Sequence record: KP869100
Source: Escherichia typing phage 1
DNA length: 64,000 bases
Reading direction: 5' to 3' (one strand)
The translations under genes and the position numbers were made by a program. Below are positions 11,394 through 13,109 of the stretch, piece by piece (position 1 is the stretch's first letter; every line of letters starts with the position of its first letter). The notes beneath the pieces were generated by a model. The model saw only the letters and a program-made list of their open reading frames with translations. It made no database searches and was not told the DNA's origin.

Positions 11394-11465
11394 TGGTACT
11401 CCATATCGGATTCGAACCGATACATAACACAGATTTTAAGTCTGGCCTCTCTGCCAATTGGAGTA
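11394..11465 (-). tRNA. atypical short tRNA-like gene (anticodon-loop candidate UAA)
   Basis: T-arm ATCGG-TTCGAAT-CCGAT and 6-bp acceptor are clear; D-arm is compressed and the anticodon stem has only 4 bp (loop CUUAAAA). Confidence 0.4.
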
Positions 11466-11474
11466 ATGGAGCAT

Positions 11475-11549
11475 TGGCGGGGGATGTTGGAATTGAACCA
11501 ACTTCTTCGATTTCAAAGACCGAGGTTTTAACCTTGTAAACTAATCCCC
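11475..11549 (-). tRNA. tRNA-Gln (anticodon UUG)
   Basis: anticodon stem UCGGU/AUCGA, loop CUUUGAA, T-arm GTTGG-TTCAATT-CCAAC. Confidence 0.6.
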
Positions 11550-11558
11550 TTTAAATCT

Positions 11559-12116
11559 TTACTTTCTTAGTGGATGAATAAAGAATGCCAACATAACTCT
11601 TTCCCTTGAAAATGCTCTTTCTTCTGGGACAACACTTTTAAGTTTCCACCCAACATAAATTCTCCAGTAAAATTGTTTACCAAAGATTTTGATTGACGGC
11701 ACAAAAGCGAATAATCCCCAAGCATTACTGTTCCACATTAGGAGATAACCAGTCTGATTATCTTCAGGGTTAGAACTTACGTTGATATTACCTTTCCACT
11801 TAGTAACATCTTTTACATCTCTTCCTAATACATGGTAAGAGAAGTTATAAGCTTTGTTTCTCCAGAGCCATCCAACTCTCTGCATGTAGACACCAAGCTT
11901 ACCAATCTTTCTAATCTTAGCCCATCGTTTGATATGACCTGCATCACCATCAATTGGGTTGTCATAAGTCTCCATCCATCTGAACCCGAAAGGTAAGTGT
12001 CCTTTCTTCTCACTGTAGAATGGAACTACAAAAGGTGCTAAGATAACTGCTAAGATTGCTGCAAATGGCTCTAACAAAGCTAAGAAAATCCATGAAGCAT
12101 ACTTTAAGTATCTCAT
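11559..12116 (-). CDS. hypothetical membrane protein embedded in the tRNA array
   Basis: 185-aa ORF with hydrophobic N-terminus (IFLALLEPFAAILAVILAPFVV). Confidence 0.45.
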   Translation of the reverse strand: MRYLKYASWIFLALLEPFAAILAVILAPFVVPFYSEKKGHLPFGFRWMETYDNPIDGDAGHIKRWAKIRKIGKLGVYMQRVGWLWRNKAYNFSYHVLGRDVKDVTKWKGNINVSSNPEDNQTGYLLMWNSNAWGLFAFVPSIKIFGKQFYWRIYVGWKLKSVVPEERAFSRERVMLAFFIHPLRK

Positions 12117-12355
12117 TGTCTAATCCTCGTAAGGAGGTAAATGTTATTATTCGTTTCTAAACCTTCTGGTAAAACTGTCTCAAAAATAACACTCTTCAGA
12201 TGTCTACCACCAAAACAATCACGTATAAAGCTTTCTACTCTAGCGGGGTCACATAAGTATCCCACTTTTAAGAAAATGTGGTGTTCAACACCAATGACCC
12301 TGACAAACTCAATACTCTCACAGTTTTCATGTTCAACTACTGTTAATGTTTGCAT
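12113..12355 (-). CDS. hypothetical protein embedded in the tRNA array
   Basis: 80-aa ORF, stop/start overlap with the downstream gene. Confidence 0.4.
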   Translation of the reverse strand: MQTLTVVEHENCESIEFVRVIGVEHHIFLKVGYLCDPARVESFIRDCFGGRHLKSVIFETVLPEGLETNNNIYLLTRIRQ

Positions 12356-12372
12356 AGTATCACCTTTTTATC

Positions 12373-12448
12373 TGGCGCAGGATAAGGGATTCGAACCCCT
12401 ATTAACAGCTTCGTAGACTGTTGCTCTTTCCATTTGAACTAATCCTGC
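12373..12448 (-). tRNA. tRNA-Arg (anticodon ACG)
   Basis: perfect acceptor GCAGGAT/ATCCTGC, anticodon loop CUACGAA, T-loop TTCGAAT, encoded CCA. Confidence 0.7.
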
Positions 12449-12453
12449 AAAAT

Positions 12454-12531
12454 TGGTGTTCCAAGACGGATTCGAACCGTCACTAATACAAGGTTTGAGC
12501 TTGCATCCTCTGCCAATTGGGATACTGGAAC
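12454..12531 (-). tRNA. tRNA with anticodon CAA (Leu by anticodon, but short variable arm)
   Basis: acceptor GTTCCAG/TTGGAAC, anticodon stem GCAAG/CUUGU, loop CUCAAAC, T-arm GACGG-TTCGAAT-CCGTC; total 78 nt. Confidence 0.5.
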
Positions 12532-12532
12532 A

Positions 12533-12607
12533 TGGTACTCACTAAAGGACTTGAACCTTTTTCTTCATCTTGTAAGGGTGATGTTTTACCATATAAACTA
12601 AGCGAGT
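12533..12607 (-). tRNA. tRNA-Val (anticodon UAC)
   Basis: D-stem GTTT/AAAC, anticodon loop CUUACAA, T-arm AAAGG-TTCAAGT-CCTTT. Confidence 0.6.
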
Positions 12608-12612
12608 ATGAA

Positions 12613-12699
12613 AGAGGTCTGAAGTTGTGCCGCTAACTCAACTTCGTGGAATTTGTTACGGTCTTCAGTTGACTCAAAGCGGTCTTTCACTTGACCTCT
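12613..12699 (-). ncRNA. tRNA-sized structured element without canonical T-loop
   Basis: 7-bp closing stem AGAGGTC/GACCTCT enclosing internal hairpin GAAGTTG/CAACTTC; sits in a tRNA slot of the array but has no TTCGA-type T-loop. Confidence 0.3.
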
Positions 12700-12703
12700 G
12701 AAT

Positions 12704-12779
12704 TGGTGCTCCCACAAGGACTCGAACCCTGATAAGTTGCTTACAAGGCAACCGTAATAACCAATTATACGATAGGAGC
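12704..12779 (-). tRNA. tRNA-Thr (anticodon UGU)
   Basis: acceptor GCTCCTA/TGGGAGC, perfect anticodon stem GUUGC/GCAAC, loop CUUGUAA, T-loop TTCGAGT. Confidence 0.7.
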
Positions 12780-12786
12780 ATTAATT

Positions 12787-12861
12787 TGGAGCATCCAGAG
12801 GGAATCGAACCCTCAACCTCAGTTTGGAAGACTGTAATTTTCCCGTTTAAACTATGGATGC
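12787..12861 (-). tRNA. tRNA-Gly (anticodon UCC)
   Basis: acceptor GCATCCA/TGGATGC, anticodon loop CUUCCAA, discriminator U, T-arm GAGGG-TTCGATT-CCCTC. Confidence 0.7.
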
Positions 12862-12867
12862 ACTAAT

Positions 12868-12943
12868 TGGTGGAGTCACTGAGAATTGAACTCAGTTCCC
12901 AAGTTTGCAAAACTCGAATTTTAACCATATAAACTATGACCCC
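12868..12943 (-). tRNA. tRNA-Ala (anticodon UGC)
   Basis: G3:U70 wobble pair in acceptor (Ala identity element), discriminator A, anticodon loop UUUGCAA. Confidence 0.7.
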
Positions 12944-12949
12944 ATTGTT

Positions 12950-13025
12950 TGGTACAGGTGGAGGGAATTGAACCCATCGTCTTACTGATTAAGAGTCAGC
13001 CGCATAACCATTTTGCTACACCTGC
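12950..13025 (-). tRNA. tRNA-Lys (anticodon CUU)
   Basis: anticodon stem GCUGA/UCAGU, loop CUCUUAA; T-stem is imperfect. Confidence 0.5.
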
Positions 13026-13032
13026 ATTAATT

Positions 13033-13109
13033 TGGTACACCTAGAGAGATTCGAACTCACACTGAGCAGATTCTAAGTCTGCTGCCTCTACCAGTTGGGC
13101 TATAGGTGC
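13033..13109 (-). tRNA. tRNA with anticodon UAG (Leu by anticodon, but short variable arm)
   Basis: perfect anticodon stem GCAGA/UCUGC, loop CUUAGAA; acceptor GCACCTA/TAGGTGT; 77 nt. Confidence 0.5.

Follow-up and report, generated by a model that had tools for sequence, protein, structure and literature searches.

In bacteria, leucine tRNA (tRNA-Leu) normally carries a long variable arm. Reviews and a 2019 study of Streptomyces (PMC6614811) regard this arm as its normal state, the latter calling its one class I example exceptional, and class I tRNA-Leu, which has a short variable loop, is already known from mitochondria and from Streptomyces coelicolor. Here, we analyzed three short tRNA genes with the leucine anticodons UAA, CAA and UAG in the tRNA array of Escherichia typing phage 1 (sequence record KP869100; the analyzed stretch of 64,000 nucleotides is called the window below). 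We conclude that they are most likely functional class I leucine tRNAs that the host's leucyl-tRNA synthetase (LeuRS) would charge. The genes themselves are not new, being annotated in hundreds of records.

The class I tRNA-Leu(CAA) of S. coelicolor has a loop of 5 nucleotides (nt), A44-C45-A46-G47-C48, which is of the NCAGY type like the phage loops UCAGU and ACAGU. It coexists with long-arm tRNA-Leu and a single LeuRS, and it is charged by this Streptomyces enzyme, which has an adapted leucine-specific domain and ignores A73 (PMC6614811). It differs from the phage genes in being a cellular gene outside any phage array and in having C48, whereas U48 accompanies A15 in 96% of the phage short set. 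Six viral short tRNA-Leu(UAA) genes have G15 and loops ending in AGC (such as ACAGC and CAAGC; IMG/VR loci L083, L090, L106, L110, L114 and L116). The ACAGC loop and these G15/AGC viral genes hint that the Streptomyces gene and the phage short family may be related. Animal mitochondrial class I tRNA-Leu shares the short variable loop, and its identity rests on A73 and A14 (PMC9976931). However, it has a relaxed structure and a dedicated mitochondrial LeuRS, whereas in the phage tRNAs the elbow is fully canonical and the D arm is of the bacterial Leu type.

Engineered arm-less variants of E. coli tRNA-Leu resemble the phage genes in that the arm is gone while A73 and the tertiary elements of the D and T loops are kept. 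Such variants remain active with LeuRS (Asahara 1993/1998, Tocchini-Valentini 2000 and Larkin 2002, as summarized in PMC9976931), and E. coli TrmL methylates tRNA-Leu(CAA) with its entire arm deleted (the VLAD mutant) as well as the wild type (PMC4615657). These are laboratory constructs, whereas the phage carries natural genes that are conserved and in which positions 9 and 13 of the core have changed in compensation. The tRNA-Leu(UAG) of phage T5 and a tRNA-Leu(UAA) of Enterococcus phage Bop are also phage-encoded, lie in arrays and have the same D-loop motif as the window genes, but unlike them they keep arms of 13-15 nt. The short form is thus frequent in phages but not universal.

Compared with their E. 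coli counterparts leuW, leuZ and leuX (anticodons UAG, UAA and CAA), the window tRNAs share A73, U8-A14, A15-U48, a D stem of three base pairs, the loop AAYYGGYAGA with G18G19 and A20a, and a GU dinucleotide directly before the T stem. They differ in the variable region (5-7 nt versus 13, 15 and 13 nt with a stem-loop in leuW, leuZ and leuX, respectively), in having A9 and C13 instead of the host G9 and A/G13, and in the T loop (UUCGAAU versus UUCAAGU or UUCGAGU). In addition, the UAG tRNA has A37 where the host has G37.

Three short leucine tRNA genes in the window

ARAGORN and the Rfam model RF00005 both recovered the three genes (Table 1), with Rfam matches that span model positions 1-71 and exceed the gathering score of 29. 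The two methods gave identical cloverleaves and anticodons. The original prediction, made from the sequence without database searches, had considered that some anticodons might be misassigned, a possibility that was rejected on the basis of this agreement. It had placed one end of the UAA gene at 11465 and thereby missed the first 7 nt of the acceptor stem, which extends to 11472. Variable loops of 5 nt had been proposed for all three. Counted with an anticodon stem of five base pairs, this length holds for the UAG tRNA, whereas the loop has 7 nt in the UAA tRNA and 6 nt in the CAA tRNA. The weak anticodon stem noted for the UAA tRNA was borne out, as a C27/U43 mismatch leaves four good pairs.

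Table 1. Coordinates of the short leucine tRNA genes, other array members and neighboring elements in the window
Feature	Coordinates	Strand	Size	Anticodon position	Variable loop	Other features	Source
tRNA-Leu(UAA)	11394-11472	(-)	79 nt incl. encoded CCA	11438-11436	GUUAUGU (7 nt), 11428-11422	G1.U72, A73, C27/U43 mismatch	ARAGORN; Rfam RF00005, 47.5 bits
tRNA-Leu(CAA)	12454-12531	(-)	78 nt incl. encoded CCA	12497-12495	AUUAGU (6 nt), 12487-12482	G1-C72, A73	ARAGORN; Rfam RF00005, 44.0 bits
tRNA-Leu(UAG)	13033-13109	(-)	77 nt incl. encoded CCA	13075-13073	UCAGU (5 nt), 13065-13061	G1.U72, A73, A37 not cellular G37	ARAGORN; Rfam RF00005, 57.3 bits
tRNA array	10198-15340	(-)	26 genes				ARAGORN, Rfam
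tRNA-Ser(gct)	10278-10370	(-)			long arm		ARAGORN
tRNA-Ser(tga)	13364-13453	(-)			long arm		ARAGORN
tRNA-Tyr(gta)	14760-14847	(-)			long arm		ARAGORN
tRNA-Arg(UCU)	13692-13768						ARAGORN
Second tRNA-Met	14092-14168						ARAGORN
First tRNA-like relic	13473-13547	(-)					Rfam
Second tRNA-like relic	14456-14506						Rfam
Permuted tmRNA match	13889-14073	(-)				sub-threshold	
tmRNA match	13769-13957	(-)				sub-threshold	
tmRNA-like stretch	13769-14073						
Intergenic element 1	14390-14533	(-)				longest of the four	
Intergenic element 2	15088-15178	(-)					
Intergenic element 3	14934-15010	(-)					
Intergenic element 4	14534-14620	(-)					
DUF2828 open reading frame	15506-16921	(-)	471 aa				Pfam

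The anticodon loops of the UAA, CAA and UAG tRNAs (CUUAAAA, CUCAAAC and CUUAGAA, respectively) all have 7 nt with U33. All three tRNAs contain U8-A14, A15-U48, G18G19, A20a, U54-A58, G19-C56 and A73, together with a canonical T loop. Their D arm, a stem of three base pairs with the loop AAYUGGYAGA, occurs in no other tRNA of the array. Class II architecture, in which the variable arm exceeds 10 nt and forms a stem-loop of its own, is absent from all three. Nor do they look like pseudogenes or relics, since each has at most one mismatch, a complete set of invariant nucleotides and a score above the threshold.

The region with the three genes is 99.6% identical to that of Escherichia phage wV8 (Felixounavirus, subfamily Ounavirinae) and has matches in 310 phage records, of which 303 reach at least 90% identity. 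Among the matches listed, the annotated records call three tRNA-Leu, although a few call one of the Leu genes tRNA-OTHER. Among the Felixounavirus records listed for the UAG gene, which include wV8, its identity is 100%, whereas most records match the surrounding region at just 90-95%. The wV8 record annotates all three genes as ordinary tRNA-Leu of 77-79 nt.

The long-arm tRNAs of the 26-gene array are only two tRNA-Ser and one tRNA-Tyr, as had been predicted. The accompanying statement that no long-arm tRNA-Leu was found also held: a permissive Rfam scan of 10100-15450 found none, yielding just two weak tRNA-like relics. In wV8, no tRNA was annotated or found by ARAGORN in 41000-67000, a stretch that lies outside the window by an estimate that is approximate because of insertions and deletions between the two genomes. 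A hidden long-arm tRNA-Leu was therefore rejected for these two scanned stretches.

An adapted partner LeuRS, as described for the Streptomyces and mitochondrial class I tRNA-Leu, was not found in the open reading frames (ORFs) and annotation inspected. Pfam detected no aminoacyl-tRNA synthetase domain in six long window ORFs, and none is annotated in positions 1-67000 of the 88487-nt wV8 record. Since no synthetase gene was seen in these genome parts, the phage tRNAs presumably use the cytoplasmic LeuRS of the host, which would be the ordinary E. coli enzyme.

Leucine identity and anticodon loops

The three tRNAs lack G3:U70 of tRNA-Ala as well as the long arm and G73 of tRNA-Ser. Other A73-accepting synthetases read anticodon bases that the three tRNAs are without. 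The nucleotides reported as essential for E. coli LeuRS, namely A73, the A15-U48 Levitt pair, G18G19, A20a and the pairs that join the D loop to the T loop (PMC9976931), to which A14 has been added (PMC6614811), are all present. According to the same literature, neither the anticodon nor the long arm is needed by this enzyme, and arm-less variants stay active (PMC9976931).

A wobble pair G1.U72 was observed in 7 of the 13 A73-bearing tRNAs of the array: Leu(UAA), Leu(UAG), Arg(UCU), Lys(CUU), Lys(UUU), Ile and Tyr. Among tRNA-Leu genes it is present in 31-38% of viral and 13% of cellular members, and the window UAA tRNA shares it with its E. coli counterpart leuZ. As a Leu-specific mark it was rejected, because the Arg(UCU), both Lys and the Ile tRNAs of the array and also leuZ have it.

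The anticodon loop of the UAG tRNA differs from that of the host tRNA at positions 32, 37 and 38, and for this tRNA the paper on phage Sf14 has also noted three loop differences from the host. With the loop CUUAGAA, the window tRNA is without the G36-G37 site for m1G37. Among tRNA-Leu genes that read CUN codons, the share with A37 is 49% for short viral genes (IMG/VR loci L013-L227), 25% for long viral genes and just 2% for cellular genes.

Codon usage and codon meaning

In the 41 window ORFs of at least 150 amino acids, the leucine codon fractions are UUA 0.25, UUG 0.14, CUU 0.28, CUC 0.06, CUA 0.10 and CUG 0.17. The corresponding E. coli fractions are about 0.13, 0.13, 0.10, 0.10, 0.04 and 0.50. 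The three anticodons thus serve codons that are over-used by the phage, and the same conclusion was reached for UUA in the Felix O1 genome paper (PMC3185647).

The meaning of these codons was examined in the phage NrdA, which is 35% identical to E. coli NrdA. Of the 27 aligned positions with a UUA, UUG or CUA codon in the phage gene, 13 have Leu and 22 have one of L/I/V/M/F in E. coli NrdA, against a Leu background of 9%. If a tRNA placed a different amino acid there, proteins of the phage itself would be harmed.

Conservation and core remodeling of the short family

Among 181 short viral tRNA-Leu, A73 (99%), U8 (100%), A14 (99%), A15 (96%) and U48 (96%) are conserved as in long viral and cellular tRNA-Leu. 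The core is different at two positions: position 9 is A in 71% of the short forms but G in 98-99% of the long forms, and position 13 is C in 77% of the short forms but G or A in 98% of the long forms. The 15-48 pair covaries in the short set (A-U in 173, G-C in seven and another combination in one). The main core types are A9/C13 (122 tRNAs), G9/G13 (24) and G9/C13 (18), and this mixture suggests several origins or a stepwise remodeling. Outside the variable region and the anticodon loop, the window tRNAs are 73-82% identical to viral short forms and 52-65% identical to their E. coli counterparts.

A gap-free alignment of 60 distinct 74-nt sequences was used to examine covariation. In the class I cloverleaf, 98% of cells are paired and 19 of 20 pairs show compensatory changes, giving a covariation score of 1.07, compared with 0.24 for shuffles and about 0.19 for slid controls. 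All four helices are thus maintained by compensatory changes across the short family, and the nucleotides recognized by LeuRS are among the invariant columns. The pattern indicates selection of the tRNA type on this family.

Short leucine tRNAs in other phages and in cells

A sensitive BLAST search with the 77-nt UAG tRNA returned colinear matches. These carry tRNA-Leu annotations and come from phages infecting Mycobacterium, Streptomyces, Gordonia, Cronobacter, Pantoea, Pseudomonas, Enterococcus and Prochlorococcus as well as from a crAss-like phage. The short form is present in phages of at least five bacterial phyla. Seven of these phages were run through ARAGORN; having been chosen by likeness to the short tRNA, they are not an unbiased sample. 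Three short tRNA-Leu genes were found in Mycobacterium phage Roots515, two each in Cronobacter phage CR9, Pseudomonas phage PN09, Streptomyces phage Elmer and crAss-like phage cr111_1, and one in cyanophage P-RSM6, all without a long-arm tRNA-Leu, while Enterococcus phage Bop has one of either kind. In these loci the short loops have 5-7 nt, and every Ser and Tyr tRNA has a long arm. Phage T5, which was chosen independently, has the long-arm tRNA-Leu(UAG) mentioned above (85 nt).

To compare viruses with cells, we scanned with a single pattern able to match short and long forms alike: TGGTAGA, 9 nt, YTNAR, 15-36 nt of gap and GTTCRARTC. It represents only one common D-loop variant. Short gaps (15-20 nt) occurred in 25 of the first 120 IMG/VR stretches that matched, the other 95 having long gaps (22-32 nt) only, and no match had a gap of 21 nt. 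Proviruses flanked by host DNA are also part of IMG/VR, and any bias from them would raise the long count alone. Among the first 120 matching stretches of GTDB species genomes, none was short (Fisher p = 1.5e-8). Hence, in the viral sample about one in five tRNA-Leu genes with this common D-loop motif is without the arm. The premise of the original prediction that bacterial tRNA-Leu is normally long-armed therefore stands for cells, whereas in phages the short form is common.

In 120 viral loci with a short-gap match, ARAGORN counted 179 short and 26 long tRNA-Leu, 3 short and 69 long tRNA-Ser, and 1 short and 34 long tRNA-Tyr, so that the arm loss is specific to leucine. The short genes lie in dense arrays, with a mean of nine other tRNAs within 3 kb. 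SerRS and bacterial TyrRS bind the long arm, and the loss of the arm in leucine tRNAs alone fits these properties of the synthetases, LeuRS not using it. The arm was probably lost in tRNA-Leu alone because, among the three long-arm types, only leucine has a bacterial synthetase that does not need it.

Proposed function and alternative explanations

Our interpretation is that the three genes would be transcribed together with the other members of the minus-strand array, after which tRNA-processing enzymes of the host would cut them out, the CCA end being already encoded. The products would adopt a normal L shape, with the core rebuilt for the absent arm by A9 and C13 in place of G9 and G/A13. 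Charging with leucine by the host LeuRS would proceed through A73, the core and the elbow. The anticodons UAA and CAA would then read UUA and UUG, and UAG would read CUN, codons that are heavily used in this AT-rich phage. Of the possibilities left open in the original prediction, that of unusual class I leucine tRNAs is thus the favored one, supported by the complete E. coli LeuRS set and the Leu-type D arm in all three.

Several observations weigh against this interpretation. The anticodon stem is imperfect in the UAA tRNA, and a U50/U64 mismatch is present in the T stem of the UAG tRNA, whose A37 makes the m1G37 of cellular CUN readers impossible. The main contrary finding is that S. coelicolor's natural class I tRNA-Leu(CAA) was no substrate for E. 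coli LeuRS (PMC6614811), which means that a short arm is not automatically tolerated. To judge from the sequences, C48 of that tRNA, in place of U48 of the A15-U48 pair, may explain this failure. A crystal structure cited in PMC6614811 has the C-terminal domain of LeuRS touching the tip of the long arm, and catalytic efficiency on short-arm tRNAs could therefore be lower. No experiments on these three tRNAs were found in the open-access literature searched.

The short arm might instead be an adaptation that hides functional leucine tRNAs from host nucleases or toxins picking long-arm (class II) tRNAs, so that leucine decoding survives when the host tRNA-Leu is destroyed. The viral enrichment of the short form and its recurrence with three core types, which suggests repeated origins, would agree with such a role. 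So would reports of enzymes that choose tRNAs by their class or long arm, with MenT3 preferring tRNA-Ser (PMC11541572) and human SLFN11 targeting type II tRNAs (PMC13191261), and reports that bacterial Schlafens are phage-defense tRNases (PMC13056530) and that phage tRNAs evade anticodon nucleases via loop changes (PMC10264068), the UAG loop of the window being altered at three positions. We nevertheless consider this explanation unlikely. No bacterial nuclease or toxin that targets tRNA-Leu via its long arm was found in the literature searched, long arms are retained on the Ser and Tyr tRNAs of these phages, which would still be exposed to one, and T5 and many viral contigs have retained long-arm tRNA-Leu. 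Furthermore, the pattern is equally explained by loss of the arm where the synthetase permits it. A broader proposal is doubtful as well: class I tRNA-Leu, with A9/C13, an NCAGU loop and often A37 as marks of its rebuilt core, could be a virus-specific lineage or a recurrent viral invention, kept because leucine can still be decoded when defense nucleases or toxins that recognize the class II arm attack the long-arm tRNAs of the host. In that case, the S. coelicolor gene would be a captured phage gene.

It is very improbable that the genes are not used in translation, whether as decaying pseudogenes or as tRNA-shaped decoys, primers or processing signals. The single stem mismatches of the UAA and UAG tRNAs, the relics and Y-RNA-like elements of the same array, the three other array tRNA genes marked as pseudo tRNA-OTHER in wV8 and the few records that label one Leu gene tRNA-OTHER could be read in this way. 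However, the Rfam matches of all three are full-length and well above the threshold, the CCA ends, the 7-nt anticodon loops and U33 are intact, and the three anticodons complement one another as a set. The identity of the UAG gene across the Felixounavirus records listed, amid less conserved surroundings, and the compensatory changes that keep all four helices across the wider family also argue against decay or a decoy function.

Finally, although the missing arm and the failure of E. coli LeuRS on the Streptomyces tRNA could be taken to mean that the tRNAs are charged with another amino acid, as the original prediction had also considered, the arm-less form being taken by another synthetase, or that they are otherwise recoding tRNAs, this is extremely improbable given the complete and nearly invariant LeuRS recognition set, the lack of Ala and Ser identity elements and of the anticodon bases needed by other A73-accepting synthetases, the NrdA codon positions, and the host tRNAs that read the same codons as Leu, against which a mischarged competitor would damage every phage protein.

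Significance

As far as the window alone is concerned, the genes are ordinary: they belong to a well-known phage genus and are annotated as tRNA-Leu. No description of class I tRNA-Leu as a common phage trait was found in the open-access literature searched, although one may exist elsewhere; the papers on Felix O1 (PMC3185647), Sf14 and tRNA-based evasion by phages do not mention short-arm tRNA-Leu. The short family represents a natural experiment in which evolution has removed just the element that laboratory work reported as dispensable for E. coli LeuRS, while retaining those reported as essential and making compensating changes at positions 9 and 13. The short form could mark phage-derived tRNA arrays, and isotype-specific tRNA models may down-score or mislabel such genes. 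Short tRNA-Leu also offer compact leucine tRNA scaffolds for engineering, and they raise the possibility that loss of the arm protects phage tRNAs from host defenses.

Other elements of the tRNA array

The 26 tRNAs called by ARAGORN in the window compare with 23 annotated in wV8 (25986-31556). Those beyond the wV8 set include Ser(UGA), Arg(UCU) and a second Met tRNA, and in the corresponding stretch the wV8 record has an HNH endonuclease, a small ORF and a pseudo-tRNA. Two genomes that match at 99.6% over the three Leu genes can thus still differ in array content. Three other array tRNA genes are marked as pseudo tRNA-OTHER in wV8.

The two relics scored 22-23 bits in Rfam. The first is tRNA-like and CCA-ended (gggacgatg...ggttcaactcctccgtcccatgcca). 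Its acceptor stem and T arm are good, its anticodon may be CCA (Trp-type), and the loop around it is oversized. It was not called by ARAGORN, and its sole Rfam match was the tRNA-Sec model (23 bits, E = 0.38). It may be a decayed or unusual tRNA.

Two sub-threshold tmRNA matches were also detected, one permuted (29.2 bits, E = 0.004, the gathering score being 47) and one of 15.7 bits. The stretch they cover sits between tRNA-Arg(UCU) and tRNA-Ile, and a pseudo tRNA-OTHER is annotated in roughly the same area of wV8 (27798-27868). Enterococcus phage Bop has an annotated tmRNA within its tRNA array.

In addition, four intergenic elements of the array have in common a 5' motif, CAGAAGACC..T.CAGCAA, and a 3' motif, GGTCTGG. 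In the predicted fold of the longest, which has a z-score of just -1.3, a long closing stem encloses a V-like hairpin, a T arm, an acceptor-like hairpin that is closed, and a D arm. The same layout is found in the bacterial YrlA Y RNAs, tRNA mimics that adjoin Ro60 genes in bacteria and phages (PMC4201824). The array scan gave no match to the Y RNA families of Rfam. The ORF directly upstream of the array encodes a protein with the Pfam domains DUF2828 and DUF7788, which is annotated as an RNA-binding protein in wV8 and had no match in a PDB sequence search. In Streptomyces phage Elmer, a gene annotated as a Ro-like RNA-binding protein lies within the tRNA array.

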